From: Rickettsiales bacterium
GTDB lineage: Bacteria > Pseudomonadota > Alphaproteobacteria > Rickettsiales > UBA3002
Reading direction: 5' to 3'
NCBI GenBank assembly: GCA_022763105.1
Contig: JALEGK010000030.1
Location: 358 to 64,357 of the forward strand
DNA: 64,000 nucleotides
The notes under the pieces are model-generated. The model had not been told where the DNA came from, did no database searches, and saw only the letters and a program-made list of their open reading frames with translations. The translations under genes and the position numbers were made by a program. Positions 35,226 to 59,614 of the stretch are shown here, in pieces. The first letter of the stretch is position 1; each line of letters opens with the position of its first letter.

Positions 35226-35428
35226 GCGCTCAAACACACGATATGATCTGCGGATTCACATTCATTGCGCTACATGACAGACGCCATGCGGGCGCCAAAC
35301 GCACCGACGCTGAACAAGCAGAACTCGATGAGTGTATCGCTCGTGCAAAACGTGCAGGGATAGACGATGATCGCATCGCGTCACTCTTTGATGTGGAATT
35401 ATCTGATATAATGGCGGTGATGATCTAA
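35222..35428 (+). CDS. small hypothetical protein
   Basis: 68 aa, ATGA overlap with the upstream gene. Confidence 0.4.
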   Translation: MSAQTHDMICGFTFIALHDRRHAGAKRTDAEQAELDECIARAKRAGIDDDRIASLFDVELSDIMAVMI

Positions 35429-39070: not shown

Positions 39071-39130
39071 ATGGCTAAAAATCCCCTCCATTTTATCTCA
39101 ATCCAACCAACCAAAGTAAGGAACACGCTT

Positions 39131-40521: not shown

Positions 40522-40585
40522 CCTAATGTTTTTTTAATCACTGCTGTGCTAATCCTATATGTATAAAAGGAATAGGAGCAGACTC

Positions 40586-42865: not shown

Positions 42866-43051
42866 ATGCCCTGTTGGTTGCAGATGCAAAGCAGTCTGTT
42901 TGGCTGCAATGCACATCTGCGCCTGCATTTCAGGCGGGCAGGTAAGCTCTATTGGGTGGATGATGCCGAGGCGCAGTTACTACTACGTGCGAACGATGCG
43001 ATACGGATCACCCCCGCGTTTTTTGACCCCCCACACAGATCAGGAGAATAG
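42866..43051 (+). CDS. small phage-like protein preceding the head-tail connector
   Basis: MQSSLFG...AGKLYWVDDAEAQLLLRANDA resembles small proteins found after HK97-type capsids; stop lies 1 nt before the g6 ATG. Confidence 0.45.
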   Translation: MPCWLQMQSSLFGCNAHLRLHFRRAGKLYWVDDAEAQLLLRANDAIRITPAFFDPPHRSGE

Positions 43052-43052
43052 C

Positions 43053-43598
43053 ATGAGCGAATACCCAACCCGCGGGCTGCACCGCGTGACAGACCCAAGC
43101 GTCGAGCCGCTAAGCGTTAGTGAAGCGAAGCTCTTCTTGCGCATTGATACGAGCGATGATGATAGCCTGATTGGCGATTTCATTACCGCCGCACGCGAGC
43201 TAGCCGAGGCCATGACCGGACGCTCGCTCATTACGCAAAGCTGGCGCGTGACCTATGAGAATGCCGCACCGAACCCGATGCCATTGCCGCAAGGCCCAAT
43301 CCTGTCGATCACATCGGTGAAGACGATAGATGAAAGCGCCAGTGAAACCACGATCAGCAGTGATGATTATGAGCTGAATGCAAGCAAGACCGAATTGTTA
43401 AGCGATACCGGCCTGTGCGCACACCGCATTGAGGTAACGTACCAAGCGGGGTACGGCCCAAGCGCCAGCGATGTGCCTGCCGATATCCGCCAAGCGATGC
43501 TGATGCATATCGCGCATATCTATGGCCACCGTGATGAGATGAACCCACCCCAAACCAGCCTGATTATCTATCAGCAATATCGTGGGGTGCGCGTATGA
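43053..43598 (+). CDS. head-tail connector / adaptor (GTA g6, phiE125 gp8-like)
   Basis: EPLSVSEAKLFLRID, AARELAEAMTGRSLITQSW, AGYG..VPADIRQAML; AGGAG RBS. Confidence 0.9.
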   Translation: MSEYPTRGLHRVTDPSVEPLSVSEAKLFLRIDTSDDDSLIGDFITAARELAEAMTGRSLITQSWRVTYENAAPNPMPLPQGPILSITSVKTIDESASETTISSDDYELNASKTELLSDTGLCAHRIEVTYQAGYGPSASDVPADIRQAMLMHIAHIYGHRDEMNPPQTSLIIYQQYRGVRV

Positions 43599-43960
43599 GT
43601 ATCCGAGGCAGAAACACTGGCATTGCAGGTGAGCTAAGCGCGCGCTTGCGCCACCGTATTACGATTGAACAGCCAAACGATACCGCCGATGGCGGCGGCG
43701 GCGTCACACGAGGCTGGACGACAGTAGCAACCGTGTGGGCAGAGATTATCCCAACACGTGGCGGAGCAGAGCAGGGCTTAGGCGAAGCAGCCATACAAGC
43801 GCTACACACACACCGCATCACCATTCGCTATCGCGACGATGTCAGCACCGATATGCGCATCGGTTTCGATGGTCGATATTTCAATATTCGCAGTATCACC
43901 AATGTAGAGGAAGCCAAGGTCGTACTGGAGCTAAATGTTGAAGAAGGAGGCGCCGTATGA
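43595..43960 (+). CDS. head closure protein (GTA g7, SPP1 gp16-like)
   Basis: LRHRITIEQP..DGGGG..W..VATVWA, HRITIRYR, MRI, FNIRSI. Confidence 0.92.
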   Translation: MSIRGRNTGIAGELSARLRHRITIEQPNDTADGGGGVTRGWTTVATVWAEIIPTRGGAEQGLGEAAIQALHTHRITIRYRDDVSTDMRIGFDGRYFNIRSITNVEEAKVVLELNVEEGGAV

Positions 43961-44367
43961 GCGATTGGATTTTATGGCCTGCCCAAAAGGCAATTTATTC
44001 GCATTTAAGCAGCGATTCTGCCCTAAATGCGCTGGTGACGGGCACCTATGACCACGTGCCGCCAGATGCTGCCTTCCCATACGTTTATTTAGGCCAGGGA
44101 ACGGCGGAAGATCAGAGTGTGATGGGCCGTCAACGCAGTGTGATAGAGCTGCCTATTTTCGTCTATAGTCGCGAGGGCGGTAAGCGCGAAACACAGAAGA
44201 TTTTTGCGCGACTCTATTGGCTGCTCCATGACCAAACACTCAGTGGCGATGGCATTTCGCTGTACCATATCGAACACCGCACGGCAGTCATACGATTACT
44301 CGATGACAGACAAACCTATCAGGGTGAAATGCGGTTTCAGATTTGGTGTGAAGTGAGTGTGGCGTAA
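43957..44367 (+). CDS. DUF3168 tail terminator/completion protein (GTA g8)
   Basis: QKAIYSHL, YDHVP...FPYVYLG, SREGG; ATGA overlap with g7. Confidence 0.85.
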   Translation: MSDWILWPAQKAIYSHLSSDSALNALVTGTYDHVPPDAAFPYVYLGQGTAEDQSVMGRQRSVIELPIFVYSREGGKRETQKIFARLYWLLHDQTLSGDGISLYHIEHRTAVIRLLDDRQTYQGEMRFQIWCEVSVA

Positions 44368-44868
44368 CTAGCGAACCGCGGCAGCCGATGTGCTGCTAAA
44401 GAGTGCGGCAGAATCTTTATAGAAACTGGCGCGCTCATCATCGCAGATACTACGCTGATTCGACGCGTAATGCGCACAGGCCAGCTTGTTGTCTTGAAAC
44501 TCAAAGACAACCGGCTCTGGCTCGACATCGAAAGTATGGAATTCATAGACCATGCCGTTACGCACGCGAACCATCGAATTGTCCGCAGGCGCGCCAAAGG
44601 CAAGTTCTAACATGTGCTGTGCTGCTCCCCAGAAGGGACGACCCTCAATGAGGTCTTTCTTGTTGCGATCAGAAATCAGCATGCTGCGAATACGCTCGAT
44701 GCGGCGCTTTTCTGAAAGATCGGGATCGCTCTCGATAGAGGCCATCGCTTTGCTGCCAGTCAGAATATATTTCATATTACCCAATAGCTCTGAATGACTC
44801 GCATTCAGATACAGAATCATGACGAACACTAATGATCCGAGTAATAATGAAGGGACGATTGTCCTCAT
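44368..44868 (-). CDS. hypothetical membrane-anchored protein
   Basis: N-terminal hydrophobic helix; 166 aa. Confidence 0.6.
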   Translation of the reverse strand: MRTIVPSLLLGSLVFVMILYLNASHSELLGNMKYILTGSKAMASIESDPDLSEKRRIERIRSMLISDRNKKDLIEGRPFWGAAQHMLELAFGAPADNSMVRVRNGMVYEFHTFDVEPEPVVFEFQDNKLACAHYASNQRSICDDERASFYKDSAALFSSTSAAAVR

Positions 44869-45019
44869 AGTCTGCTAGCCTTCCGTATCTGCCCAAAAAA
44901 TGGGCCTTTTACAGTACGTTTCTCTGTCGCACTCTTAGGTGCAATCTACTTCACTATAGCAACAAAAAGTTAACAAAGTGTCAAAATGAAGATGAAATGA
45001 GGGCGGTTTTGTTAATAAA

Positions 45020-45757
45020 TTAAGGGGTCTTAGCCTGAAAACGCAGCATGAAATTGGCGTATTGCTGGTCTAGCATGGCAAGCTCTGGCGCATCACATGG
45101 TGTGCGGCTATACATCATTTGGAACGAGCCTTCCGCCGCCGTGACAATACCCGAATAAAGCTCTGATACATCGATTTTTTCAACGGTACCATGCTTCTTA
45201 TGCTCCAGTAGATCGGAATGCATGGCGCGCATGAGGGCTTTGACCTCATCGGCATTGGTACGCTCACAACGCAGCAGGATATAAGCACCCACCAGCGAGT
45301 TCTCGTAACGTTGCTTCAAATCATCCAACGTTGCATCATGTGCCCAGTCGCTCTCAGACTCTAGCAGGCTTAAAATAAGAGATGGATCATCCTCAGAGGT
45401 CTGATTTTCTGTGCGATACACACTGGTTGCGCTGCGACGCTGCATCTCTAACTGCTGAATACTATCGCTGATACGCTGCTGAGCCGCCATGCGCAGCTCT
45501 AAATGACGCACTTGATGGCGCAAATCTTCCAGCAAATAGCCCATTGAGCTAAAAATCAGCGCGATAAACAATAAAGATAGCACATTGCGCTGACGAAATT
45601 TCTTCAGCAGGAAATCGATGCGATGCTCAGGAATGACATCTTCGAGTTGAGCGCGTAACGCTTTCTCATCCATGAATAAATAGGCCAGTGTCAGCACCAG
45701 CAATAATACAAAAATAATCGCAAACGCAATCGGCGGGATATCGTGGATAAATTCCAT
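45020..45757 (-). CDS. hypothetical membrane protein
   Basis: Two TM helices plus coiled coil; start MEFIH overlaps the upstream stop (TGATG). Confidence 0.65.
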   Translation of the reverse strand: MEFIHDIPPIAFAIIFVLLLVLTLAYLFMDEKALRAQLEDVIPEHRIDFLLKKFRQRNVLSLLFIALIFSSMGYLLEDLRHQVRHLELRMAAQQRISDSIQQLEMQRRSATSVYRTENQTSEDDPSLILSLLESESDWAHDATLDDLKQRYENSLVGAYILLRCERTNADEVKALMRAMHSDLLEHKKHGTVEKIDVSELYSGIVTAAEGSFQMMYSRTPCDAPELAMLDQQYANFMLRFQAKTP

Positions 45758-46224
45758 CAGCCTGAAGCCCCCTGTCCGGTGCAATCAATGACCAGATTCT
45801 CGCCCATCGCGGCTTTAACTTGCCATAAGCGGTCATACGCGAAACAGCGATATTCAACATCTAAACGCTTACGGCAAGAGGGATGCTTTTTGTTTTCCAG
45901 CACCTTCGGCGTCGCTTTGATCTGGCAGGTGAATTTACCGCCACACAGCTCTTTCATTTTATGCAGCACATTATTGCGCTCCATATTATCCAACCCGTCA
46001 GTGGGCAGGTTACGACGCGCATAATCTTTGCGCTTTAGATCGAGCACATAATTACAATTCTCGCCCCAAGTGGCAGAATGAATATCGATAACTTTATTGG
46101 GGTCCACACCGCTAATGCCTGCTTCGGCAGCGATTTGCTCTTTATTGCCGGCTACGAGAAATACGATGATCGCCGCAGTGATCATCATAGAGACAGCCAT
46201 AATATGAAACTTCATATTCGTCAT
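45757..46224 (-). CDS. membrane-anchored protein with SUEL/Gal_Lectin-like domain
   Basis: IDIHSATWGENC...CGGKFTCQIKA...PSCRKRLDVEYRC fits SUEL cysteine spacing. Confidence 0.6.
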   Translation of the reverse strand: MTNMKFHIMAVSMMITAAIIVFLVAGNKEQIAAEAGISGVDPNKVIDIHSATWGENCNYVLDLKRKDYARRNLPTDGLDNMERNNVLHKMKELCGGKFTCQIKATPKVLENKKHPSCRKRLDVEYRCFAYDRLWQVKAAMGENLVIDCTGQGASG

Positions 46225-46417
46225 TGCTGCTTACCGCTTAAGTCCGTGCGAGACTCCCTGTTTTGTTTGTTTTTGTCTTATGATCTGAACGCTGGTTTAG
46301 TGAGATTACGCGCCGACCACAAGGTTTTATTATCATTATTCTAAGGTAATAGCGTACCGGGTTTAAGTAAAAAAATAATTAATACTAAGATAACAAAGCG
46401 TTAATGTTTGGTTTTAT

Positions 46418-48478
46418 TTAGACATTAGCGGCGCGTGCGCGCTGCTCCAGAAGAATCTTTAGGGCTGTCTGTGCATCGACGCTGCCCGTTGTGCCTGCAT
46501 CTTTCATCTCTACAGAGCCAACCATGCCACGACCAACTTCGAGTGTGTCAGCGCGCGCTAGCTCGGTGCGATGACCGGTAGGGGTGACATCACCCGCATC
46601 CGCGCGATCGGTACGTCCAGTGGTTGCACGATCAACGGTTGCGCCGCCCATATGCTCACGACGATAGGCCAATGATGCCTCAAACCCTTTGCTGGTATCG
46701 GCATATTGCATCATATGCTTTGGAATATCGATGCCATGATTACCAAACAACGCCAAATGACCACCCCACCATCCTTGATAGTGCAGATGCGCCAAATAAA
46801 CTTTTTCACCTTCCTTAGTGCCATCTGGAACGACACCGGTGAAGGTGTTTAGCAGCTTACGCTTTTCCTGAAGCACGGGCGAGATGACTTGTGCAATCTC
46901 ATTGTAAGTGAGTGGGCGATATAGCGCCTGATTATCTTTGACTGATTTAACCTTGCCATCCGAAGTGGTGACTTTAAATTCATCGGTCGCGAGCAAGGCT
47001 AGCTCTTGTTCATTTAATTGACCGCCTTTACCGGCAAGTAAGCGATCCCATACGGATTGATCACCAGAAAGCTTGGCTTCTTTGAGTTTTGCAACCTGCG
47101 CATCAGATAGCTTTAACTGATTTTGCAATATGCGACCATATAAGCCGCCCATATCATCTTGCAGATACAAGCGATCTTCTTCGGTCAGATATTGCGAACC
47201 AAATGGGTTTTGCTCTGGGTTTAAGAAGACTTGCTGCAAGAGACCGGCGCGATGCGAAATCTCATTAAGTTGCACATGGTATTTGACCATACTGGCACCG
47301 TCTTTACCTTCTTCCCATAAGGTGTGCCCTGCGTCTGATACGCTCTTTTTGAACTTATCCCAGCTCTCAATCGAAATTTTCTCACCGGCCTTAAACATGC
47401 CATTGAATAGTTCTGCAGCACCTTTGGTCATGCCTTGTACGGCACCATTGATCAGAGTGATGTGACCATGACCAAGCGCCATATGCTTGCCCACCACGCC
47501 CATAATGGCGCCCATTTCATCGGTGGTTAGTTTGATGTTTTTAAATGGTGAATCGGCGGCACCTAAAATGCGATCCAGATCACCTTGTGAAATATCACCA
47601 TGCTTAACGGCAGCACGAATAAAGTGTACACCAGTGCCACGCAATTCACTTGCCTTAAGCTCGCGAACCAGCGGGTTAAAGAGCTGGTCGCCCCACATGC
47701 CTTTGGTTTTACCGGCATATAGCTCCATCATGTGGCGCAGATTCTGAATACGCTCTTCTTCAAGCGCGAGCGTGCGACCCTTCATGATGCTTTCATTGAA
47801 ATCTTCCAGATGCTTCTTCGCCAGATCAACCTGTGCGGCTGCTTGGAATGTCTCTAACATAGAGCCTTTGCCAGACATGGCGGCTTCCATCTGAACAACA
47901 ATCGCTTCAGCTTCCTCAGCGGTAACTGGTTCACGTTTGCCGGTTTTCTCATCCACCACTTTTCCGCGTGATTGAATCGAAGAGACCAGCTCAGCACGTG
48001 TATCTTTTAGGCGTTGCTCAAGGTCAGCATGCCCTTTTTCAGCGCGAGGCGGCTTACCATCAACAAAGAAATCTTTATAAAGCGCTGCCTTTGCGATAGG
48101 TGATTTCGTATCGCGCTCATGCTGGGGCTTGCCTTCGTTGGTTTCACGCCACTTATCGATCTCTGCTTGTAGCGCATCTTTATCACCACCATGTGCGACT
48201 AATGCCGCTTCATAAGCAGATTTATAACCACCATTACCTTCATAACCACCACCAATCTCGGTGACGAGTTCGTCGAAACGACGTTTGATATATACGGCAC
48301 GCGAAAACTCCGCTAGCGCGGCGTCGCTGCGGATATTCTCTTTATGAACCGTTTGCTGGGCATCGAGCTTTTGTTTGATCGCACCTTGCATGTCCAGGTG
48401 CTTACGATTTTGAATCTGCTCCTCGACGATGTTCGAGTAGCGATGTCCCCCCTTAGTTGTTTTCGTTTTATCGGTCAT
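46418..48478 (-). CDS. large hypothetical protein (helical/coiled coil)
   Basis: 686-aa ORF; no family recognised. Confidence 0.75.
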   Translation of the reverse strand: MTDKTKTTKGGHRYSNIVEEQIQNRKHLDMQGAIKQKLDAQQTVHKENIRSDAALAEFSRAVYIKRRFDELVTEIGGGYEGNGGYKSAYEAALVAHGGDKDALQAEIDKWRETNEGKPQHERDTKSPIAKAALYKDFFVDGKPPRAEKGHADLEQRLKDTRAELVSSIQSRGKVVDEKTGKREPVTAEEAEAIVVQMEAAMSGKGSMLETFQAAAQVDLAKKHLEDFNESIMKGRTLALEEERIQNLRHMMELYAGKTKGMWGDQLFNPLVRELKASELRGTGVHFIRAAVKHGDISQGDLDRILGAADSPFKNIKLTTDEMGAIMGVVGKHMALGHGHITLINGAVQGMTKGAAELFNGMFKAGEKISIESWDKFKKSVSDAGHTLWEEGKDGASMVKYHVQLNEISHRAGLLQQVFLNPEQNPFGSQYLTEEDRLYLQDDMGGLYGRILQNQLKLSDAQVAKLKEAKLSGDQSVWDRLLAGKGGQLNEQELALLATDEFKVTTSDGKVKSVKDNQALYRPLTYNEIAQVISPVLQEKRKLLNTFTGVVPDGTKEGEKVYLAHLHYQGWWGGHLALFGNHGIDIPKHMMQYADTSKGFEASLAYRREHMGGATVDRATTGRTDRADAGDVTPTGHRTELARADTLEVGRGMVGSVEMKDAGTTGSVDAQTALKILLEQRARAANV

Positions 48479-48501
48479 TGTTTCACGTGCTTATGTTGTA
48501 C

Positions 48502-49764
48502 TTACATAGTTACCATAACGTCTTTTGCCGTTGTTTTCACTTTAGCTTCTTCACTGCCGTGATATTTAATCGGATCGAACGTCAAACCAGTTAGTTTTGA
48601 TTCAATCACAATACCGCCGTCGGTAAAGTCGATATCTTTGATATTCTCTAACTGACCACCAACAAGCGCTTTGATGCTTTTAAAGGTTTCCGGGTTCTCC
48701 GTAGCGATTTGATTAAGTACACGGATTTCAGCTTCGGTTAGATATTCTTTATGATCGGTTTTGCCCTTGCCCTGATCAATGAGGGCTTTTAGTGCCGCAA
48801 TCGCTTTTGCATTGCCGGTAACACCAAGATTCTGCGCTGTCAGATTAGTGATAATACCCTGACGCAGATCGTCCGCAGCTTTATCAATGGCAGCGATGCC
48901 GTCTGCTGCATTTACAATAGCGCCATCCATTGTGATACTAGTAAATTCGCCTTTTAGGCGCGCATCATAAATGGCACCATACAAACCGGTGCGTGGCTCG
49001 ATTGCGGTTAGTCGTAGGCCAGTTTTGCCGTTACCATGAATACGAATCTCGCGGTAACCATAACCGGTAATTCGCTCGGCAATTGATTGCGCGTATTTCT
49101 TCGCGTCGGCATCACCATTCAGAATAGTCAAAGCATTCTTGCGGTCATCAGCAGTGAGAACATAGGGTTTCCCACCCGGAGTCAGGTCTTTATTCAGACG
49201 TGATTCAAGTAATTTGACGAGTGCCTCTTCGTAGACCGCTTGATAGGTCGCTTTCGCTACAGATTTAGCATTTGCTTTTGCTTCATCTTCTGGGCCACGA
49301 ATCCAATCTGCGATCCCCATACCAACACGACCATCCTTAAAGGTTGTCGATGCGGTTTCTGCGGCTACTTTAAGTAATGATTCTTGAATGCCTTTTGGTA
49401 CGTCAGTGCCTAATGGTTCTTTTCCTTCTTTGGCAAGCTTGGTCATTTCATCGAGTTTGGCAACAACAGCGTCATTCAGTTTGGTTGCTGTTGGTGCGAT
49501 CAGGTCGCCCAGTCCGCTCCATAATTGACCAAAGACTTCTGTTAGTGGCTCCCACCACCAACCAACGAGATATTGATACCAAGTACTGTTTTTTGCTTCT
49601 TCTGCATCTGCTGGACGCACTTCACCTTCTTTAAGAAGGCCGAATCTTGCTTTAAGATCGTAAGCCATCGCTTGCTGAAGACCTTTTTGCGCATCCCCAG
49701 TAGGGTCGCCTATAGTCTCCTTGAATACGCCTCCGAAAAACTCGCTAAGATTAAATCCAAACAT
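48502..49764 (-). CDS. hypothetical protein
   Basis: 420-aa ORF; no family recognised. Confidence 0.75.
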   Translation of the reverse strand: MFGFNLSEFFGGVFKETIGDPTGDAQKGLQQAMAYDLKARFGLLKEGEVRPADAEEAKNSTWYQYLVGWWWEPLTEVFGQLWSGLGDLIAPTATKLNDAVVAKLDEMTKLAKEGKEPLGTDVPKGIQESLLKVAAETASTTFKDGRVGMGIADWIRGPEDEAKANAKSVAKATYQAVYEEALVKLLESRLNKDLTPGGKPYVLTADDRKNALTILNGDADAKKYAQSIAERITGYGYREIRIHGNGKTGLRLTAIEPRTGLYGAIYDARLKGEFTSITMDGAIVNAADGIAAIDKAADDLRQGIITNLTAQNLGVTGNAKAIAALKALIDQGKGKTDHKEYLTEAEIRVLNQIATENPETFKSIKALVGGQLENIKDIDFTDGGIVIESKLTGLTFDPIKYHGSEEAKVKTTAKDVMVTM

Positions 49765-50041
49765 TGTCTGCCCTTTAAGGTTTTTTTCGCTTTCAATTTC
49801 GTTCGGGATACAATGATCCCTTTCTACTGTACTAATAGTACCAATTTTACCCCCAATTTTGTGTGAACCTTATGTGACAATATCCTTGTTTTTCAGTGGT
49901 TATCTTCACGCAAACGTCACACATACTGCCCAATAGCTCTGATAAACTGCTAAGTGCATCAATGTGGGTTGGTGCGCGTGCGCTATGGGGAATAAACCCG
50001 ATGGCGAAACTAGAAAAAACGGGAGTATTGCAACCGCTTAT

Positions 50042-52168
50042 ATGGCAAAAGACGATACAGAAAAGCAGCCTAAAGAGAAGACCGCAGCACAGCGTCTAGC
50101 GGAGCTTGATAAGGATGCTGCGCCTGATGCAGTCGATGCTGTAGCTAACCAAGGCAAACAGCTCGCAGATGAAGGCAAGCAAATTGCCGATCAAGCCACA
50201 GCGATTGCCGCAGGCGGCGTTACGGCCGATGCCGCACGCGAAATGGCACTGAAATATGGTGGCGATAACGCACAGAAATTGGTGGCCGCAGGCGATCAAC
50301 TCAAACAACTTCAAAATGCAACGAATGGCGACACACCAGATTTTAAAGCACTGGCAGCCTCCGCCGAGCAAATGGGCGTGGATGGCAAAACCAAAGAATT
50401 CTTACATCACCTAGCAGATAGTAGTGACCCTGCAAGAGCGGGTGAAGTGCCGGGCCTGATCGTCGATCGCGATTCGGGCAAAGTAAAACTCTTCGGTATC
50501 GAAGGCATGGAAGTGCCACCGCAATATGCGGCGATCATGGCTTCGGGTTATACCTTTGCGCTGAACCTAATAAATGGGTTCGTCTGGGACAAAGCATATA
50601 AGGGCGCATCGCATGTAGCAGAACATCAGTTTAACCTAGATGCAGCTGGTCGCCATAGAGCAGGCTTAGTCGCAGCTTACGCTGGTATCGGCGCGATGAC
50701 ACACTGGATTGATATCAATCAGTTCTATCAGGCAGAAAAACAATACCGAGAAGATTATCGCAAATTATCGCGTCATTTAGCACCCGTGCTGGACGACATG
50801 AAAGGTCACCACGGCACAGCGGCTCTCTTCAGTGTGAAGCCGGATGAAAACGAACTCGTATATAATGAACGCCGACGCATGCATGATATCAATAATGCAG
50901 AACGCAATAAGCACTTTGTGCAGGCGCTGGGTCGTAATGTTCAGTTTGTCGTGAGTGCCGTCGAAGGCCACGCTAAGTTAGGCGCGCAGGGCTTTAATTC
51001 GGATGCGGCAAAACAAGCAGCGAAATTCGCAAAAGACAAAGATGCTATGAAAGAGCATTACGCGAAACTTGCCGAGACGATGGACGAAATCAAATCGCAA
51101 GTGGGCGATCGCATTAGTAAAGAGAAACTCTTGGAGATGGCTGAAGAGCAAATTGGCGCCGCTCCAAAAGGCAAAGCAAAAGCAGACGCGAAGGGCGGCT
51201 TCAGTAATGTTCAAAGCCAGCTGATGAATGGTGGCGCACTGATCTCAACCTTTGTCGGTCAGATGGTGGGTAATGCGCTATTCACCTCTCGCCGTGATAA
51301 AATTCAGCCAATCTCGGCCTATGACATGATCCGCGAATTAAAAGCGCAGGTCGATGATAATACCAAACGCGAACGCTACCGCCTGCCAACAGGCATGAAG
51401 GTGGAAGGTCGCAAAGGCGTGAATGATAATGCACTCACATTAGAGCATTATATCGAGCAAATCTTTAGGCAGCATGAGCGCGACGGTGACCCGAGCGCAA
51501 AAATCAGCGACCGCCTGAAAGACGAATTTGAAGAAGCATGCGGTATCATCGCACAAGAAATTCGCGATGAGCGACTAGACACCATGGCGCTGATCCAGCT
51601 CGTCGGTGAGCGTAAAGTGGTTCGCCGCGGTGGTAAGTCGGTGGTTGGTAAGGACGTAGTCAATGCAGAAGTAGATCGCATTGAAGCGCAGATGAAGCAC
51701 GCAAGCTTCATCGACGAGGCAGAATATTTCAACGACGCATCATTCAGCAAAGAACAGCTACGCGACGCATGGGATGCTATGGATGCAGAAGAACGCGAAA
51801 TTTTCGCGACCTTCGTACCAGAAGAAGTGTTAGAAGCAGCAGGGGTGAACCTGAAGAAACTACAGCAAGACAAAGCACAGCGCCGCGAAGCCATGCACAA
51901 GAATGTGAAACAGGTCGTCGATGGCTTGGTGAAAATGGGCGATGAAAAAATGCGCGAACTAGACGCGACCAACACCGAAATCGAACTGCTCAATAATGCA
52001 GCAGAAAAAGTAGCAAAAGAAGGCGATGACGCCATCGATAAATACATGCCGGGCGTGGGCAAGAATGGCGAGCTAACACTCGACAGACCCGTTGCCAACA
52101 TGCTGGTGCACCACGTTCAACATGGCGGACGACTACAGGAGTTAATGATAGAGCGTAGCGCTGAATAA
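50042..52168 (+). CDS. large hypothetical protein (helical, with hydrophobic segments)
   Basis: Likely start MAKDD at 50042. Confidence 0.75.
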   Translation: MAKDDTEKQPKEKTAAQRLAELDKDAAPDAVDAVANQGKQLADEGKQIADQATAIAAGGVTADAAREMALKYGGDNAQKLVAAGDQLKQLQNATNGDTPDFKALAASAEQMGVDGKTKEFLHHLADSSDPARAGEVPGLIVDRDSGKVKLFGIEGMEVPPQYAAIMASGYTFALNLINGFVWDKAYKGASHVAEHQFNLDAAGRHRAGLVAAYAGIGAMTHWIDINQFYQAEKQYREDYRKLSRHLAPVLDDMKGHHGTAALFSVKPDENELVYNERRRMHDINNAERNKHFVQALGRNVQFVVSAVEGHAKLGAQGFNSDAAKQAAKFAKDKDAMKEHYAKLAETMDEIKSQVGDRISKEKLLEMAEEQIGAAPKGKAKADAKGGFSNVQSQLMNGGALISTFVGQMVGNALFTSRRDKIQPISAYDMIRELKAQVDDNTKRERYRLPTGMKVEGRKGVNDNALTLEHYIEQIFRQHERDGDPSAKISDRLKDEFEEACGIIAQEIRDERLDTMALIQLVGERKVVRRGGKSVVGKDVVNAEVDRIEAQMKHASFIDEAEYFNDASFSKEQLRDAWDAMDAEEREIFATFVPEEVLEAAGVNLKKLQQDKAQRREAMHKNVKQVVDGLVKMGDEKMRELDATNTEIELLNNAAEKVAKEGDDAIDKYMPGVGKNGELTLDRPVANMLVHHVQHGGRLQELMIERSAE

Positions 52169-52211
52169 AGACGACAACCAAGGCAAAGCACACGGGAGAT
52201 AGCCAAGCCAC

Positions 52212-54239
52212 ATGGGAAAACACGACGAACTACAAAGCCAATGGCGTAATCCGCCGGATGAGGTAGACCCATCCGAAGTCGGCATGACGACCAGCGCTGT
52301 GCTCAATAATGGCGATGCAGGCTATAAACTTTTCAAAAAATTCACCGACACCGGACTGAAAATGGATAGCATGTTCAGCCCATGGAGTTACTTCACCAAG
52401 ATCCCTGGCCCGTTTGAGCATTTCTTGAAAAATAACGGCAATGCACAAGGCTCTTGTACCGCTGGCTGGATGGAATATATCGGACAAATGTATGCGCTTG
52501 GCGATGATATGCGCAGCTTTACAAGCATGATGATGCCACCACCCATTGCGATGATGGCAGGCCAGTTCGGCTTATTGGCAACCGATACGCATCGTGAATT
52601 TAGCCAGAAATTTAACGATAACCTACTGACTCATAATGACGATGGTTCGCTGAATCGTGTGTATTCAACCCATGTAAGAAAATTGTTCGAGCCGGGAAAA
52701 GAAGATCAATGGCCGCAGATTTTCTTAACCAGTAATCACGCCATGTCCGCAACACATGAAGATGTGGCGGGCCTAATGACGGGGCTACAGAAATTAGCCA
52801 AGGATAGCTTTGGACTAAAACCAAATCTTATTCGTCGCATCGATAAAGGCGCGCCCGAAGAAGACCCCGCTAAAGAGGGGGTTGGCCCAAAAACCATGAT
52901 CATTTCGGCGGTCAGTGCCCGCCCGAATGCATGGCTAAACGGTTCGGCTTTACTGCGCCGCCTGATTGAACTGCGTGTTCAGCATGACCGTAACCCGCAT
53001 CAATTCCCCGATCAGGATTCGGAGATGAGCCCGGCAGCGATTCGCCTGGCTAAATTTATGCTACGCATGATGGTCGAAGAAAAAGATATCAGACGCGTTG
53101 ACCCATTCGGTACAGAGCGCATGGCCGATATCATCGCGGATGGTCAAGAGCCTGTCACACTACGCAGTGACGCCCGCGCCATCGCACAGCATATTCGTAT
53201 TGCAGGCTATAGTAAGGGCGGAAATACCGTGACCGATGCAATGCGCTACTTAGTATCAGAACTGAAAGCGACACGCGCAAATGGCGAGCCAGCCTTTGTG
53301 ATCCGCCATAAAGAGAATGAGCCGCTAAAAGAAGACGAAAGAGATTATGGTGATGCCCAAGGCGCGGCATCGGCACTGGGCAAATGGGATATCGCATCGA
53401 TTGTACGTAATATCGGTTTGCTAAGCATTGCTGCCGGTGAAGTACCGCTAACACACGAAGAAAAAGAATATGGCATCCGCCGGATTAATATTCTGAATGA
53501 TAAAGATGTGGTGGCATCGCATTTCAGTGCGGCAGACCGCAAACGCCCGGAATTATTCTATGGCCGCCATGATGATTTCCACCTTATTGGCGGTGTCGGT
53601 GATGAGTTGGGGCACGGACCCGACTTTGCGCTAGGTACCATCAGCAAAGATGGCAAAGAAGAAAGCGGCTATATCATGAGTAAGCCCAACGGTGGCGTGC
53701 GCGATAAATTGCGTTGCTATTTCGCGTCGATGTTTGACAAGGTAGCCGTACAGGACCTTGTAATTATTCCCGAATTTGAGAAGGATGGAAAACATTACGA
53801 CGCACAGGTCGAAATCGAGCTGGCACCCGGTGTAACCTTTGATCAGGCAGAGAAAAAACTGCTACCCGCATTGAATGACGCTGTGTATGGCAATGGCAAA
53901 AAAGTGAGCCAAGAAGAGGCGGTAAGTTTCTATACAGACCTAGATAGCCGCTGTTTGCGTATGACGGGCTGGAAATCTGGCATGGATATGAGCAAACTCG
54001 TCTCGCGCATTAAGGAAGCCTTTGAAACATTAGGACCAAATGATGCCGGAAACGACGTGCTGATCTCAAAGAATGCGATGTGGGAGCTAGATAATTATGA
54101 GCGTGAAGTCGCACAAACCAACCATCCAAATGCTGCGGCCATCTATGCTGAATCGGTGATTCACGACCGCATGCATGACGCAACACGATTCTACCCCGAG
54201 CTGGCAGAGCCGCAAAGCCATGCCATGCGAGGCTCCTAA
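52212..54239 (+). CDS. putative alpha/beta-hydrolase (lipase-like)
   Basis: IRIAGYSKGG nucleophile elbow, NILNDKDVV acid, LGHG histidine in the expected order. Confidence 0.6.
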   Translation: MGKHDELQSQWRNPPDEVDPSEVGMTTSAVLNNGDAGYKLFKKFTDTGLKMDSMFSPWSYFTKIPGPFEHFLKNNGNAQGSCTAGWMEYIGQMYALGDDMRSFTSMMMPPPIAMMAGQFGLLATDTHREFSQKFNDNLLTHNDDGSLNRVYSTHVRKLFEPGKEDQWPQIFLTSNHAMSATHEDVAGLMTGLQKLAKDSFGLKPNLIRRIDKGAPEEDPAKEGVGPKTMIISAVSARPNAWLNGSALLRRLIELRVQHDRNPHQFPDQDSEMSPAAIRLAKFMLRMMVEEKDIRRVDPFGTERMADIIADGQEPVTLRSDARAIAQHIRIAGYSKGGNTVTDAMRYLVSELKATRANGEPAFVIRHKENEPLKEDERDYGDAQGAASALGKWDIASIVRNIGLLSIAAGEVPLTHEEKEYGIRRINILNDKDVVASHFSAADRKRPELFYGRHDDFHLIGGVGDELGHGPDFALGTISKDGKEESGYIMSKPNGGVRDKLRCYFASMFDKVAVQDLVIIPEFEKDGKHYDAQVEIELAPGVTFDQAEKKLLPALNDAVYGNGKKVSQEEAVSFYTDLDSRCLRMTGWKSGMDMSKLVSRIKEAFETLGPNDAGNDVLISKNAMWELDNYEREVAQTNHPNAAAIYAESVIHDRMHDATRFYPELAEPQSHAMRGS

Positions 54240-54369
54240 CACCCTAAAACCCCTCTGTTTTTTCACGGAAACGTCATAAAAGGTTCATACTGACGAACCA
54301 AAGGCACGATATACTGATAAGGATGCTAAAAGTGTATCTACAGTTGAATTATGTGCATGAGGTGGCGAA

Positions 54370-56190
54370 ATGGTAGAGCAATTCGTCAGTAGCGCTATGC
54401 GTGCGCCAAAACCGGGTGGCTTAGGCCAAGTCGGCGGAAGTGCGGGCATGAAAGGTGCCAAGCTCACGCAAATGGGTGATCCGACCAAAGTACGCACATG
54501 GGATCACCAGAGTTTCTTCGAGTCAGGTTTAGAAAATGTTGGTACCGTCGGCGATGTCGCCTTTGGTGCGCAATTCCTGATTCCGGGTTTAGCATGGGTC
54601 ACACGAAATACATTAGGCCGCCTTCCGAATGTTGGGCTAGGCATTACCAACGGTGCAGGTAAAATCTTCACCGCGCCAATGCGTGCATTAGAAACCACAA
54701 CAGTAGAAGATGCATTAAGCGGCCGCGCATTTGGCAAGCTGGCATCGGAACACGCACGACACAGTAAAGCCTATGCTGCCGAATTCGGTTCGCTCAAAGG
54801 CACGGCTGAAGGCGCTGAGATTCTCGCTAACCATAGCATTGCACCGAAAGCAGCAGAGTTTACCTCTGGCGCATTCCGCAATGATCACTTCCTGCATGGA
54901 TGGGCACAGCGAGGCATTACAAAAGGATTTGAAAACCTAACCGAACAAGCAACCGGCCATCAGGCGAATCTGGCAATCGGTAAGCAGGGCATGCTGGAAG
55001 GCACGCTCACCAAAATGGGCATAAAAGAAGCACCAGCCATTGCACAGATGCCAGCAGAAGTACAAGCCATTCACGATGAGTTAGGCGCATTCAAACAGAC
55101 CATTTCAGGTGAAGCACATCTGGTGGATATGGCAAAAGCAGAAAAGCATTTGGGTAATGTGGTCAAGCTTTCGCAAACCGCAGAAGTAGCAGGTCACGGC
55201 AAGCTGATTGGTACTATCGCCAAAGATATGGGCGAGATGAGAGAAAAGCTGACCGGCGTTCAAAAACACATGAGCGCTGCGCGTAATCCTAAAGGTGCGA
55301 TGGCAACGGTAGGCACCGCAGTTAAAGGTGCGTCGCTGTTTGATGTTGTGTTTAAAGGCGGTATGGCCGCTGGTGCCGCGTATTATGGCGTACGCACCAT
55401 TACACATGCGAGCCAAGCGATCTCTTACCTGAAAGAATTAAACAAAGACCTGACTGGCAAAGAGCTGGGCACGCTAGATCTGATCATGGGTAATCACCTA
55501 ACCCCAATGATGCAAGAAGCGCGCGCCAATATGATTGCGAAGTTTGGACCAGAAACAGTCGCTGCCGCAGCCAGTGCCGCGCTGAACATTATTTTCATGA
55601 GCAAGCACCTTAATGCTAAATCGCAGGCACTCATGATCGGTGCAATCGGTACACAAATGGCCGCTAGCAGCCTAAGCCCACCACAGCACCTGCTTGATAG
55701 CTATATCCAGATCAAAGACATGCAAAAGCAGAATATTCCAGTGCCAGTTGAATCTTACGGCATGTTACTCGATGCCGCATCGGCAGATGCACGCGCCGCA
55801 GGTGGCCCTGAGAGCCGCTTGGTACGACGCTTGGCCGAGGAATATACCAAAGAACAAATCAAACCAGCAGATTTGCTGAAAGAAATCGAAGGCAAAGACG
55901 TCTTCAATAAACGCGCGCACCGCATTGCCAAAGAGATCAAAGCAGAAGATGCGAAGAAGCATCGCCATCCAACGACCAATAAATCGCTTCTAGATGACAA
56001 AGACCAGAAACCTGATAGCAAAATTAATGCGAAGAGTGCGAAACGTCAGGATGAAAAAGAACATGATGATCAGCGCACCAATACCGATGGAGCCGCGTTA
56101 GAAAAAGCCGATGCAAAAACCGTGATCGCTGCAAATGAAATGAGCCATGAAGGGCGCATGCAAGAAGCAAGCAGGGAGGTGAGCAGCTAA
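54370..56190 (+). CDS. large hypothetical protein with Ala/Gly hydrophobic helices
   Basis: 606 aa, GAGG RBS; ends KTVIAANEMSHEGRMQEASREVSS. Confidence 0.75.
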   Translation: MVEQFVSSAMRAPKPGGLGQVGGSAGMKGAKLTQMGDPTKVRTWDHQSFFESGLENVGTVGDVAFGAQFLIPGLAWVTRNTLGRLPNVGLGITNGAGKIFTAPMRALETTTVEDALSGRAFGKLASEHARHSKAYAAEFGSLKGTAEGAEILANHSIAPKAAEFTSGAFRNDHFLHGWAQRGITKGFENLTEQATGHQANLAIGKQGMLEGTLTKMGIKEAPAIAQMPAEVQAIHDELGAFKQTISGEAHLVDMAKAEKHLGNVVKLSQTAEVAGHGKLIGTIAKDMGEMREKLTGVQKHMSAARNPKGAMATVGTAVKGASLFDVVFKGGMAAGAAYYGVRTITHASQAISYLKELNKDLTGKELGTLDLIMGNHLTPMMQEARANMIAKFGPETVAAAASAALNIIFMSKHLNAKSQALMIGAIGTQMAASSLSPPQHLLDSYIQIKDMQKQNIPVPVESYGMLLDAASADARAAGGPESRLVRRLAEEYTKEQIKPADLLKEIEGKDVFNKRAHRIAKEIKAEDAKKHRHPTTNKSLLDDKDQKPDSKINAKSAKRQDEKEHDDQRTNTDGAALEKADAKTVIAANEMSHEGRMQEASREVSS

Positions 56191-57311
56191 TGGCATTACC
56201 ACCTGAAGAGCGCGAAAAACTAGGTTTGCCAGAAGCCAATGTCAATGGTGCAAGCTTGGCTGGAGTTGCGGTAGCACAGCGCGAAGAGGCCGACCAAAGC
56301 ATGTTGCCCGGCCGCGCAGGCAAGATGATGGCAGAAGGCCAAAAGGCGATTCAGAATTTTGACCCTAAAGAACTCATGACCACCGATTTCTTACTCGAAG
56401 TAGCAGAAGGTGGCGTGCCGATTCCAGGTGTGCAGATGGTGGGTAACGTCGCAGGTGCTGGTGTTGGCTTTATCGTCGCAGACCGTCGCGCAAAGAAACA
56501 ATATGACGCTATGATTGAGCGTTACCGCGATGAAATCTCAACCCAACTGGGCGTGCCGTCTGAGCAAGTGGGCATTAAAGAATTATTGGAAGCCGCCAAA
56601 CACAGCCCAGGACTGCGTAAGTCACTCGAATCGATTGATGCGGAGAAAGAATCCCATCCATATGTCAATATCTCTGGCCTACTCGGTATGGGTGGCGCGG
56701 TGATGGCATCCGCCCCATTATTCGCAGGTGGTCCGATTATTGGCCTAGTCGGTGGTGCCGTCGCGGCGATGGGTGGCTATATGGCGGGTAGTAAGATTGG
56801 AGAATCTTTCTTGAGTCCCAATGAAGATGCCAACCCGCAAAAGCATTTAGAAGAAATTGAAATGAAACTGCAAGCCGGTGAACCGGTGACCGAGCTAGAT
56901 TTATTCAAGCTGCGAGTCGCGCAAAGCCCGTACCTAGAGCAACAAATCGAGTCGCAGATGGGCAAACATTTTGCGCAGCTAAACAAAGCCGACCAGAAAT
57001 TTGTGATGCGACGTAATGCGTCACTCAGACATCGTTGTATGGTGGATGCTGACAGATGCAATAACGGATTAAACACCGATGAGCTGATGTTTGATCAGCA
57101 ACAACATTCTCCAGTACAAGAAATTAATGATTTAGCCGAGTTAACGGGCGATGCGCAAATGAGCGAACAGGTAGGTGATGAGCCGGGCGTGTTCGGTAAG
57201 CACACCGCCCGTCACCAATCTGGCTCTGGCAAAGGCGGTAATTTCCGCGAGATGGTCAAAGCGCGCCGCGTGCTGGCTTCGCAAGGCGCAGCACTCGATA
57301 AGACATCCTAA
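56190..57311 (+). CDS. glycine-zipper-containing hypothetical protein
   Basis: GPIIGLVGGAVAAMGGYMAGSKIG; TAATG coupling with the upstream gene. Confidence 0.75.
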   Translation: MALPPEEREKLGLPEANVNGASLAGVAVAQREEADQSMLPGRAGKMMAEGQKAIQNFDPKELMTTDFLLEVAEGGVPIPGVQMVGNVAGAGVGFIVADRRAKKQYDAMIERYRDEISTQLGVPSEQVGIKELLEAAKHSPGLRKSLESIDAEKESHPYVNISGLLGMGGAVMASAPLFAGGPIIGLVGGAVAAMGGYMAGSKIGESFLSPNEDANPQKHLEEIEMKLQAGEPVTELDLFKLRVAQSPYLEQQIESQMGKHFAQLNKADQKFVMRRNASLRHRCMVDADRCNNGLNTDELMFDQQQHSPVQEINDLAELTGDAQMSEQVGDEPGVFGKHTARHQSGSGKGGNFREMVKARRVLASQGAALDKTS

Positions 57312-57372
57312 ATTCAGACGCACCGTCTGAACCTATTTTCACCTTTTATTCTATCTAACCAATGAGGCTATC

Positions 57373-57972
57373 ATGGCGTTTCACGACGTTCAGTTTCCCA
57401 CTGACATCAGCTATGGCTCGACTGGCGGGCCGGGCTTTTCTACCGATATTGTCATCAATCATGGTGGCTATGAACAGCGCAACAGTAATTGGGCGCAAGC
57501 GCGCGGGCGATATAATGTCGCGCATGGCATTAAAACCCAAAACCAACTGAATGAGCTGGTCGCATTCTTCCGCGCACGCAAAGGTCGCGCCCATAGTTTT
57601 CGTTTTAAAGATTGGACAGACTATGAGGCCAACGGTGTCATCATCGGCACTGGCGATGGCAGCACCGTCGAATTTCAGCTGATCAAACCCTACACCAGCG
57701 GCGCAACGACAATCAGCCGCACCATCAGCTTACCTGTCGCGGGAGCGTTGAGTCTTTATCTGGATGGCTCGATCACCCCAAGCGGCTACAGCATAGATAA
57801 TAGCACCGGATTGATCACCTTCGATTCCGCACCCGGATCAGGCGTGGTGATCACCGCAGATTACGAATTTGATCTGCCCGCACGATTCGATACCGACCAG
57901 CTCTCTGCCCGCATCGAGAATTATGGCGTGCGTAGCTGGTTAGATATCCCAATCATCGAAGTGCGGAGGTAG
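57373..57972 (+). CDS. DUF2460/TIGR02217 distal tail protein (GTA g12)
   Basis: FHDVQFP.DISYGSTGGP, EQRN..W, FFRARKGR..FRFKDW.D, FDLPARFDTD. Confidence 0.93.
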   Translation: MAFHDVQFPTDISYGSTGGPGFSTDIVINHGGYEQRNSNWAQARGRYNVAHGIKTQNQLNELVAFFRARKGRAHSFRFKDWTDYEANGVIIGTGDGSTVEFQLIKPYTSGATTISRTISLPVAGALSLYLDGSITPSGYSIDNSTGLITFDSAPGSGVVITADYEFDLPARFDTDQLSARIENYGVRSWLDIPIIEVRR

Positions 57973-57974
57973 CC

Positions 57975-58823
57975 ATGCATACACTCACCAGCGCATTCAA
58001 CGCGCATTTGCAAACCGATGTGACGACACTTGCAACTTGCTGGAAGATCACGCGGCGCGATAGCACAATCATGGGCTTCACCGATCATGACACCGATATT
58101 GAGTTAAGTGGCGTCACCTATCTGGCATCATCCGGATTCACGCCCACAGCCGTGCAGAACTCATCCGCACTAAATGTCGATAATCTAGACGTACAAGGGC
58201 TGCTCGATTCGGCGGCCATCACCGAAGAGGATTTGCTCGCCGGTGTGTATGACTTCGCCGAAGTGGAATGCTTTGTCCTCAATTACGAAGCGCCTGATGA
58301 TGGCACGCTACCGCTGCGCACCGGATGGATTGGCGAGGTAACAGTCAATCAAGGCGAGTTCATCGCCGAGATTCGTGGACTCACCCAACGTCTGGGCCAA
58401 ACCATCGGCCAGCTTTATTCGCCCACTTGCCGTGCGCAGTTAGGTGATAGCAGATGCGGCGTGACGCTAGGTAGCTTTACCGTAACCGGTACGGTCACAG
58501 CCAGCACAGACCGCAACCAACTAACCGATAGCGGCCGCTCAGAAGATGACGGCTATTTTGCTTACGGCGTGGTGAGCTTTACATCCGGTGCGAATACCGG
58601 CTTAAGCATGGAAGTAAAACAATTCAGCAATGGTAGTTTTATTCTGATGCAGGCCATGCCGCACACGATAGAGGCAGGCGACACCTATAGCGCGATAGCA
58701 GGCTGCGATAAACGCATCGCCACCTGCGCCAGTGTTTTTAGTAATGCTGCCAACTTCCGTGGCGAGCCGCATGTGCCCGGAACCGACCGGATTTTAGAGA
58801 CTTCGACCACACGTAACGAGTAA
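57975..58823 (+). CDS. DUF2163/TIGR02218 baseplate hub protein (GTA g13)
   Basis: CWKITRRD..GFTDHD, CRAQLGDSRC, GCDKR..TC..F.N..NFRGEPHVPG. Confidence 0.93.
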   Translation: MHTLTSAFNAHLQTDVTTLATCWKITRRDSTIMGFTDHDTDIELSGVTYLASSGFTPTAVQNSSALNVDNLDVQGLLDSAAITEEDLLAGVYDFAEVECFVLNYEAPDDGTLPLRTGWIGEVTVNQGEFIAEIRGLTQRLGQTIGQLYSPTCRAQLGDSRCGVTLGSFTVTGTVTASTDRNQLTDSGRSEDDGYFAYGVVSFTSGANTGLSMEVKQFSNGSFILMQAMPHTIEAGDTYSAIAGCDKRIATCASVFSNAANFRGEPHVPGTDRILETSTTRNE

Positions 58824-59088: not shown

Positions 59089-59586
59089 ATGAATACGCAG
59101 AACAAACCACAAGGCAATAAAGGCAACAACCCGCGACGCGGTAACAATAACCGTACCGAATCCGCAGGTGGCCGCCAAAACCGCAACCGCCGCCCGCGCA
59201 AAAAGGCGGAGGTCTTGCCAGATCCAGAAGTGCTGGAAGCGTATGATTACGTTGTCGAAGGCTCTGCAAAAGAAATCATCGAAATGTTCAAGACCGAACA
59301 AGCGCACCGACACCAATGGGAACGACGCGCCTTGCGTATTCACATGATGAGCACGGTCATCGGCCAAGTGCTTGGTTTCCTCATCGCGATTGCGATTTTT
59401 GTCTCCGCGGCCGTTATCGGCATTCACGGCGACTCAACCATTGGCGCATTTATCTGGGTCTTTGGCATGGCGATCATCACCATGGCCGCACTGGTCTGGT
59501 GGTACGCAAAAAGCCTGGGCCAACGCCCACTCTTTGCCCGCCCCGCGCTACGTTCATCTTTCCGCGCGGAAAAAGATAAGAGCTAA
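59089..59586 (+). CDS. DUF2335 family membrane protein
   Basis: LPDPEVLEAYDYVVEGSAKEIIEMFKTEQAHR followed by two TM helices. Confidence 0.85.
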   Translation: MNTQNKPQGNKGNNPRRGNNNRTESAGGRQNRNRRPRKKAEVLPDPEVLEAYDYVVEGSAKEIIEMFKTEQAHRHQWERRALRIHMMSTVIGQVLGFLIAIAIFVSAAVIGIHGDSTIGAFIWVFGMAIITMAALVWWYAKSLGQRPLFARPALRSSFRAEKDKS

Positions 59587-59614
59587 TCATAACCCTTTAT
59601 ATCCGAGGTATATC

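Follow-up and report, generated by a model that had tools for sequence, protein, structure and literature searches.

The gene transfer agent (GTA) of Rhodobacter capsulatus, RcGTA, is encoded by a cluster of about 15 kb. As described in the available text of PMC7296036, the channel of its particle is filled by a trimer of the 219-amino-acid (aa) protein g11 inside five tube rings, and this trimer, which fills the tube, has features of the P22 tail needle. The GTA gene sets of endosymbionts (Rickettsiales, Holosporaceae, Rhodospirillales) are reduced or scattered; according to the available text of PMC9254644, head and portal genes are kept, no tube is detectable and the remaining genes are under purifying selection, and the options raised there are a reduced particle, tail genes that have diverged beyond detection and hide among the “unknown genes” that follow the adaptor, and recruitment of unrelated phage genes. 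Here, we describe a GTA (domesticated-phage) cluster from an uncultured marine alphaproteobacterium, on a contig of 64,436 bases (C77), nearly all of which is taken up by the 64,000-nt window that we analyzed and whose positions serve as coordinates throughout. The genome very probably lacks the genes for the tail interior, namely the tail tube (g9), the chaperone (g10) and the tape measure (g11). With moderate confidence we favor a true loss, recurrent in evolution, by which an expanded and lineage-specific GTA cluster was stripped of its tail interior, while the slot between g8 and g12 holds an accessory module that is conserved.

The cluster occupies the right half of the window and shares with RcGTA, as far as the available text of PMC7296036 describes it, the gene families and their order, from terminase, portal, protease and capsid through g6–g8 to g12–g15. 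The head module comprises terminase, portal, protease and HK97 capsid genes (PF17289, PF04860, PF04586, PF05065); the neck genes g6, g7 and g8 follow in order at 42900–44367 (PF05135, PF05521, PF11367), and the baseplate genes g12–g15 are present (PF09343, PF09931 plus PF09356, PF00877, PF13547), with g15 cut by the contig end. All recognizable GTA open reading frames (ORFs) are intact, with profile matches near full length. Unlike RcGTA, the window has no tube g9 (PF06199), no chaperones g10 and g10.1 (PF11836, PF09550) and no tape measure g11, and hence encodes neither part of the RcGTA channel. Its terminase is divided between two ORFs, and it adds an antisense cassette, four genes that we call A, X, B and C, and a DUF2335 gene. 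Whereas the RcGTA cluster is compact, this one spans at least 38 kb, with unrelated genes interspersed throughout.

In comparison with the endosymbiont sets, as the available text of PMC9254644 presents them, the neck and the full baseplate g12–g15 are kept here and only the tail interior is missing; furthermore, the “unknown genes” resolve here into a conserved module, and a graded series of losses and lone tube genes can be documented. We met no description of the antisense cassette with the A-B-C module in the available text of PMC9254644, and among the papers listed in a literature search none describes it in title or abstract. New here are therefore the recognition of the “unknown genes” as a conserved module that appears to predate the losses, a shortened tape measure (mini-g11), lone relocated tubes and the graded series.

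Between g8 and g12 (44368–57372) lie nine non-overlapping ORFs, five on the minus strand (166, 254, 155, 686 and 420 aa; here m166, m254, mSUEL, W686 and W420) and four on the plus strand (734, 675, 606 and 373 aa; A, X, B and C). Six of the nine measure 373–734 aa, although the likely start of A is the ATG at 50043, from which it would have about 708 aa, in line with the consensus of its family. A tenth frame (217 aa, 51448–52101, minus strand) lies wholly inside A and was treated as spurious. A first-pass annotation of this DNA had bounded the gap by DUF3168 (g8) and DUF2460 (g12) genes, judged the head, neck and baseplate genes intact, counted nine ORFs with six large ones and recognized no tube, chaperone or tape measure among them, all of which our analysis bears out. 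No slot ORF has a Pfam match at E≤0.01 except the 155-aa ORF, which carries a SUEL lectin domain, and none has a match in PHROGs or NCBIfam.

The left edge of the slot is sharp. The stop codon of g8 (TAA, 44365–44367) directly abuts that of the antisense m166 gene (44368–44370), so that no g9 remnant is left at this junction. In the closest relative, G001, a 137-aa tube gene lies between the homologues of the two junction genes. A Logan contig (6,002 bases, depth 11.3), whose run is a possible source of the genome, spans the junction unchanged; run X2 gave no coverage of it. At the right edge the layout is operon-like: the stop of B and the start of C share 1 base, 61 bp separate the end of C from g12, and only 2 bp lie between g12 and g13. 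B and C abut or overlap in relatives as well. Promoter and terminator prediction told little: promoter-like sites numbered 14, where 17.8 are expected, and one terminator-like hairpin with a weak T run lies just after C (57313–57331).

We searched the whole assembly (2,064,743 bases in 81 contigs, 48.6% GC, marker completeness 100%) for the missing genes. Eight Pfam families (PF06199, PF09550, PF11836, PF09718, PF20155, PF04630, PF08813 and PF06791) all stayed below cut-off, and their best sub-threshold matches, at E 0.105–0.30, all came from tape-measure models. With 18 tube proteins of relatives as tblastn queries, the best match had an E value of 0.024 over 38 residues. A tube profile hidden Markov model (HMM) built from those 18 proteins, which recovers 18/18 of them at E≤2.9e-29 as a positive control, gave a best E of 1.2 when run with --max against all six frames. 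Under the same settings, HMMs of the tape-measure C-terminal motif and of mini-g11 gave best E values of 0.32 and 0.46. A genome-wide HMM check for tube and tape measure had been suggested in the first-pass annotation; carried out in this way, it turned up no g9–g11 homologue elsewhere in the assembly.

The content of the slot is largely shared with related genomes. The loci compared came from 16 family genomes and from three genomes of other families; in each, the region around the tube gene, around the DUF2460 gene or around both was fetched, and all ORFs were compared. Syntenic homologues were found for six of the nine slot ORFs (m166, m254, mSUEL, A, B and C), and X is shared only with G001 (a syntenic gene, 38% identity). 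W686 and W420 have neither a homologue in the fetched loci nor a paralogue in the genome; for W686, only the protein itself appeared among the candidates drawn from 5.8 billion proteins, within the limits of that search. The label “orphan genes”, which the slot content had been given, is thus apt for W686 and W420; it does not hold for the six conserved ORFs, and X has its one syntenic relative. By BLAST, A falls in a cluster of 14 members, C in one of 24, mSUEL in one of 15, m254 in one of 14 (window included) and m166 in one of four, with syntenic homologues in three loci; m166 and m254 are also matched in other families by HMM, and the two subfamilies of B are joined by hhalign at 99.2%. 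The usual layout in the family is capsid, a 120-aa gene, g6, g7, g8, tube, antisense cassette, A, B, C, g12, g13, DUF2335 and g14.

Across the order, A occurs in 49 of 201 genomes sampled and in at least seven families, including 13 of 13 genomes of this family (G000 included). In 1.84 billion proteins family A forms 353 clusters at 50% identity, nearly all of 550–740 aa, and 0 of 34 scanned members has a Pfam domain above threshold. In at least 29 of the 49 genomes A shares the strand of g12 and lies 1.8–7.8 kb upstream of it, some of the rest being contig breaks, and the order and orientation of A, B and C beside g12 are kept across several families. With alignment A1 (of C) as query, a protein search yielded just 13 proteins; all of them lack Pfam domains, and one is a hypothetical protein of a “Rickettsiales bacterium” metagenome-assembled genome (MAG). 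Collectively, this comparison of gene content and order indicates that most of the slot is a block conserved in synteny and older than the losses, and that the cluster is an evolved variant rather than one padded with random orphan filler.

One related cluster holds tail-interior genes and the block side by side. In G221 (locus L039) the order is g8, g9, g10, antisense m254 and mSUEL, a 152-aa ORF, an antisense 352-aa ORF, A, a C-like gene, B, C and g12. Its g10 matches PF11836 at full length (E 1.3e-17), and the 152-aa ORF, which lies on the GTA strand, resembles the tape measures of the order at its C-terminal end, where its last 42 residues align with theirs at E 1.8e-13. Since g9, g10 and a mini-g11 coexist here with A, B and C, the latter appear to be additions rather than diverged forms of g10 and g11. 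Mini-g11 ORFs were found at L039:12903–13361, L047:11518–11898, L065:8581–9228, L067:11631–11990 and L068:10670–11029; they have about 119–126 aa, excluding a probable N-terminal over-extension, and combine a short N-terminal coiled-coil-like stretch with the tape-measure C-terminal motif. Families without A have long tape measures of 542–787 aa directly upstream of g12, one of which matches PF20155 (E 4.7e-18), whereas clusters with A have a mini-g11 or no tape measure.

Direct comparison led to the same result. By hhalign, A, both subfamilies of B (B1 and B2), C and X matched the order's tape measures with probabilities of 0.0–0.7%, and with W686 and W420 included the probability stayed at or below 1.1%. 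The tape-measure C-terminal motif is absent from A, B, C and X, and profile searches of the PDB with alignments A1 and A2 returned nothing relevant. A tape measure would be expected as the sole long helical protein encoded from the chaperone gene to the distal tail gene; the slot holds three or four such genes. A, B and C are in all likelihood not orthologous replacements of tail-interior genes, and the highly diverged replacements that the first-pass annotation had offered as one option find no support as orthologues, given the coexistence in G221 and the hhalign scores. An origin of A, B and C by fission of a long tape measure was rejected because the conserved C-terminal motif is found in mini-g11, upstream of A, and not in the gene beside g12.

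The distribution of the tail-interior genes in relatives suggests that they were lost in steps. The chaperone g10 (PF11836) is present in 0 of 13 genomes sampled of this family, as compared with 20 of 201 in the order, and neither the tape-measure C-terminal-motif HMM nor the mini-g11 HMM matches any locus of the family. Of the 40 family genomes searched for the tube gene, 31 have it. When the order-wide searches for A and tube were cross-tabulated, 32 of the 49 genomes with A had a tube match and 17 had none, 12 of these 17 being at least 95% complete. A direct junction of g8 with the antisense cassette, with no tube, recurs in G043, G046 and G047 (another genus of the same family), in G034, G090 and G072 (three other families), in 4 of 4 genomes examined of the genus labeled g30, and in the named MAG L054. 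A second named MAG, L051, has neither tube nor A; a search with g12 as query gave 14 named MAG loci. By taxonomy labels rather than by a tree, the tube left its site at least three times: in the genus of the present genome, within the genus labeled g8 (a genus label, not the gene) and in genus g30.

Three relatives have a tube gene that stands alone, surrounded by unrelated genes and at a great distance from the cluster: in G090 (L044) the two share a contig but are about 690 kb apart, in G072 (L045) the tube is on another contig, and in G131 (L046) the distance is about 86 kb. These lone tubes are well conserved (PF06199 E ~1e-35 in G090 and G131; tube HMM E 2.6e-31 in G072), and tube relocation is therefore real in this group. 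In genus g30, three of the four tube-less clusters carry a small ORF of 119–215 aa upstream of A with the mini-g11 C-terminal motif, and the motif HMM matches two of the four. The baseplate genes of these four genomes are conserved: nonsynonymous divergence (dN) is 0.11–0.22 for g12 and 0.10–0.23 for g13, while synonymous sites are saturated (the proportion of synonymous differences, pS, is about 0.7). Such low dN despite saturated synonymous sites suggests that selection has kept the baseplate genes through a long divergence in a tube-less lineage, on the assumption that the junction shared within g30 reflects one ancestral tube loss.

These data are best explained, in our view, if an RcGTA-type cluster of a lineage-specific, expanded kind has lost its whole tail interior (g9, g10 and g11). 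The 13 kb of the slot would then not have replaced these genes but would mostly be an older accessory block, found at the same place in related genomes and made up of the antisense cassette (m166, m254 and mSUEL), the co-oriented A, B and C running into g12–g13, and the narrowly distributed W686, W420 and X. In the probable order of events, g10 and a recognizable g11 would already have gone when the family diversified, and several separate losses of g9 would have followed. In any particle that is made, the neck (g6, g7 and g8) would dock directly on the g12 ring and the g13–g15 baseplate, giving a short podovirus-like tail. A tube-less head-plus-baseplate particle was also among the options of the first-pass annotation; genome content, through the absence of the interior genes, the same junction elsewhere and the conserved baseplate, supports it best, although the particle itself is deduced from the genes.

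Several observations weigh against recurrent true loss of this kind. Among the sequencing runs listed in a search for this DNA, none was of RNA. The count of independent losses rests on taxonomy labels and not on a tree, and with dS (synonymous divergence) saturated, only dN is usable, so that no reliable omega can be given. In genus g30 A and B evolve fast (dN 0.45–0.60 for A and 0.47–0.70 for B). The terminase gene is in two pieces, which could mean impaired packaging. Some clusters depart from the usual layout: G127 and G160 have no GTA gene within the 20 kb fetched around A; G119 has A with m254, m166 and DUF2335 but without g8, g12 and g13; and G012, a genome in one contig (L027, C1:158000–176000), keeps capsid and head genes, neck, tube, antisense cassette and A-B-C, while a DUF2460 (g12) gene is found nowhere in its genome. 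Either A, B and C may have a role that needs no baseplate, or erosion may be taking a different course from cluster to cluster. Finally, neither the sequences of A, B and C nor the models of A and B, which are of moderate-to-low confidence, match any virion protein, and with 81 contigs and lone relocated tubes in three relatives, a copy in an unassembled gap is possible.

Plain decay is the alternative that survives best, and we regard it as unlikely. The cluster would be a non-functional relic eroding piecemeal, and the cassette, A, B, C and the lineage-specific ORFs would be host genes in a permissive spot, unrelated to any particle. The mosaic of losses fits such erosion, since some genomes lack only the tube, G012 lacks only the baseplate, and G127 and G160 keep A alone; so do the split terminase, the wide span with its many unrelated genes and the fast evolution of A and B. 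A relic would nevertheless hardly be expected to keep every recognizable GTA ORF intact with near full-length matches, or g12 and g13 at the low dN found in the four tube-less genomes, or the order and orientation of A, B and C and the coupled B/C junction beside g12 across several families. The terminase split loses weight as a sign of decay as well: in four of five family relatives checked the nuclease domain likewise lies in a short frame (172–283 aa), the fifth having an unsplit 490-aa frame, and a split common to these relatives appears to be old and tolerated.

That the tube, and possibly g10 and g11, moved into an unassembled part of the genome, leaving a normal tail, we consider improbable. 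Relocation of tail genes, which the first-pass annotation had also put forward, did occur in G090, G072 and G131, and an assembly in 81 contigs leaves room for it; in the present genome, marker completeness is 100%, and no copy was found with the eight Pfam models, the 18 queries and the three custom HMMs on six frames. Moreover, since g10 is missing from all 13 genomes sampled of the family, even members that have the tube are unlikely to build a normal tail templated by a tape measure. Least probable is that A, B or C is a tape-measure or chaperone analogue diverged beyond recognition and working with an unrecognized tube protein: the position just upstream of g12, the long helical sequences with hydrophobic Gly/Ala-rich stretches as in many tape measures and the complementary occurrence of A and long tape measures would fit, but the hhalign probabilities, the missing C-terminal motif, the coexistence with g10 and mini-g11 in G221 and the lack of any candidate tube oppose it.

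What A, B and C would do under the favored reading, true loss, is a separate matter. The ejection proteins of short-tailed phages (T7 gp14, gp15 and gp16; P22 gp7, gp20 and gp16) are encoded by consecutive genes among the tail genes, are largely helical and in some cases have membrane-active segments; a tube-less particle must bridge the periplasm. A, B and C resemble them in a “works like” sense only, as consecutive genes for helical proteins with a segment of the membrane-active type. They differ in that no sequence or fold similarity to them was found and in that they occur also in clusters that have a tube. We suggest only tentatively that A, B and C could be particle components, tail-lumen or ejection-type proteins made together with g12–g13; in that role they would serve, instead of tube and tape measure, as a plug of the channel and a bridge across the envelope. 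A shrunken mini-g11 acting as a plug is plausible in view of the RcGTA g11 trimer and its P22-needle features.

A bolder extension, which we offer as speculative and consider rather doubtful, is that a siphovirus-derived GTA was rebuilt repeatedly within one order of uncultured alphaproteobacteria into a short-tailed particle. Tube, chaperone and tape measure would have been shed stepwise, the tape measure first shrinking to a mini-g11 of about 120 aa that keeps the C-terminal helix, and A, B and C, co-produced with the distal tail ring, would have been newly recruited as plug and trans-envelope conduit in the style of podovirus ejection. If so, a natural series of siphovirus-to-podovirus tail conversion would have been caught at intermediate stages.

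Structure prediction for the large ORFs, another check named in the first-pass annotation, was carried out for A and B; both were modeled as all-helical, and the searches gave generic helical matches. The AF2 model of A, made with the family alignment, has a mean pLDDT of 66.7, with most of the C-terminal half at 80–90; that of B has a mean of 59.1 and one confident domain at about residues 440–535. Foldseek with the A model gave a best E of 0.21 against the PDB, with no match at E≤0.001, and 0.021 against BFVD; in the VIA-wide search the top matches were helical bundles of the BAR type, with Z reaching 7.2. For B, the best E against BFVD was 0.067, and the best VIA-wide Z of 10.6 fell on residues 183–303, a region of low confidence, with generic helical bundles. 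No fold was assigned to A or B because all of these scores lie within the range described for helical noise. Tape measures do appear among the non-significant BFVD rows for A and B (E 0.07–0.65, TM ≤0.11), and T7 gp14–16 and P22 gp7, gp20 and gp16 are not among the matches listed for A (PDB, BFVD, VIA-wide) or for B (BFVD, VIA-wide). In the ESM Atlas the best score for A was 0.76.

The C protein has a conserved glycine-zipper hydrophobic segment (hydropathy peak at residues 161–195); a second conserved region, which is helical, contains one Arg and one Gln that do not vary. Prediction of a complex of g12 with C scored 0.00 (“no answer”). A possible identity of C as LeoBC, suggested by a single marginal PADLOC row (E 0.0052, 13.9 bits), was dismissed. 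In X, a GxSxG-type motif is strictly conserved between the two syntenic copies, which suggests a putative serine hydrolase; five relatives of X were found among 5.8 billion proteins. Its best ESM Atlas score was 0.87, and lipase-like families at 0.82–0.83 are leads only. Even at E≤10, Pfam matches of X, of the G001 homologue of X and of W686 and W420 all stayed below threshold, and a hydrolase assignment of X thus has no profile support.

The three proteins of the antisense cassette each have an N-terminal hydrophobic anchor and are probably membrane-bound or secreted. The PF02140 match of mSUEL reaches 33.5 bits against a cut-off of 31.4, and this gene, with its galactose/rhamnose-binding-type domain, is kept antisense within the GTA cluster across several families.

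In the Wolbachia phage WO, a eukaryotic association module forms an accessory, moron-type region inside the structural module of the prophage. The slot resembles such a region in its layout, with lineage-specific, fast-turnover genes at a constant place beside tail genes of a phage-derived element, such as the ORFans of this window and a 590-aa ankyrin-repeat protein encoded between tube and g12 in another family's cluster (G036, L024:3977–5749). The core differs from such a region, since A, B, C, m254 and mSUEL are conserved across families and are not variable cargo. The ankyrin protein of G036 suggests that accessory genes in general tend to land in this slot.

These results touch on two open questions, how long- and short-tailed particles interconvert and what a GTA needs for DNA delivery. 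The relatives form a graded series, from a full interior together with A, B and C, through tube only, a lone relocated tube, and no tube with a mini tape measure, to none of these as in the present window. The tube-less genus of four genomes with conserved g12 and g13 makes the particle question testable. The unannotated family A, with at least 353 clusters at 50% identity, receives a name and a context. For annotators, the lesson is that a reduced GTA cluster with “missing tail genes” is not necessarily a case of decay or of hidden homologues.

Table 1. Features of the GTA cluster and of the g8–g12 slot, in window coordinates.
Feature	Position	Strand	Evidence or remark
Large terminase, N-terminal ATPase part, 303 aa	26329..27240	+	NF033889 E 2.8e-10, profile 24-266 of 500
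Large terminase, C-terminal nuclease part, 163 aa	28049..28540	+	PF17289 E 1.1e-16; TIGR01630 E 1.1e-21
Portal g3	32998..34146	+	PF04860 E 1.3e-77
Prohead protease g4	37626..38186	+	PF04586 E 1.8e-32
HK97-type major capsid protein g5	39071..40333	+	PF05065 E 1.4e-80
Head-tail connector g6	42900..43598	+	PF05135 E 3.6e-12
Head completion/stopper g7	43595..43960	+	PF05521 E 9.5e-28
Tail terminator g8 (formerly DUF3168)	43957..44367	+	PF11367 E 2.9e-22, near full length
g8/m166 junction, g9 site in most relatives	44365..44370	.	convergent stops abut
m166, small protein, N-terminal hydrophobic anchor	44368..44868	-	hydropathy peak residues 3-21
m254, two hydrophobic segments	45020..45784	-	hydropathy
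mSUEL, anchored, SUEL-type lectin domain, 6 Cys	45757..46224	-	PF02140 E 5.6e-8
W686, 686 aa, no Cys, lineage-specific ORFan	46418..48478	-	no homologue/paralogue
W420, 420 aa, lineage-specific	48502..49764	-	no homologue/paralogue
Divergent intergenic region, antisense block / gene A	49765..49963	.	no convincing promoter
A, conserved, all-helical, 734 aa	49964..52168	+	alignment A2 (14 sequences)
X, 675 aa, GxSxG-type motif	52212..54239	+	only here and in closest relative's cluster
B, helical, Gly- and Ala-rich, 606 aa	54370..56190	+	alignment A4
C, glycine-zipper hydrophobic segment, 373 aa	56190..57311	+	alignment A1 (18 sequences)
Distal tail protein g12 (DUF2460)	57373..57972	+	PF09343 E 3.9e-70, full length
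Baseplate hub g13	57975..58823	+	PF09931 E 2.2e-61; PF09356 E 2e-27
DUF2335 membrane protein	59089..59586	+	PF10097 E 1.4e-15
NlpC/P60 peptidase g14	within 59372..60055	+	PF00877 E 4.7e-7, residues 96-215
g15, GTA TIM-barrel-like domain	62389..63999, cut by window/contig end	+	PF13547 E 5.9e-36

Some further features of the cluster deserve mention. The true start of g14 is probably further downstream, because the listed frame overlaps the DUF2335 gene. By HMM, the DUF2335 gene between g13 and g14 occupies the same place in related clusters of several families. Among the interspersed genes, an antisense 245-aa ORF (27247–27984) separates the terminase halves, two adjacent pentapeptide-repeat proteins are encoded on the minus strand between portal and protease (35425–37577), and a short-chain dehydrogenase gene lies between the capsid and neck genes (40559–41521).

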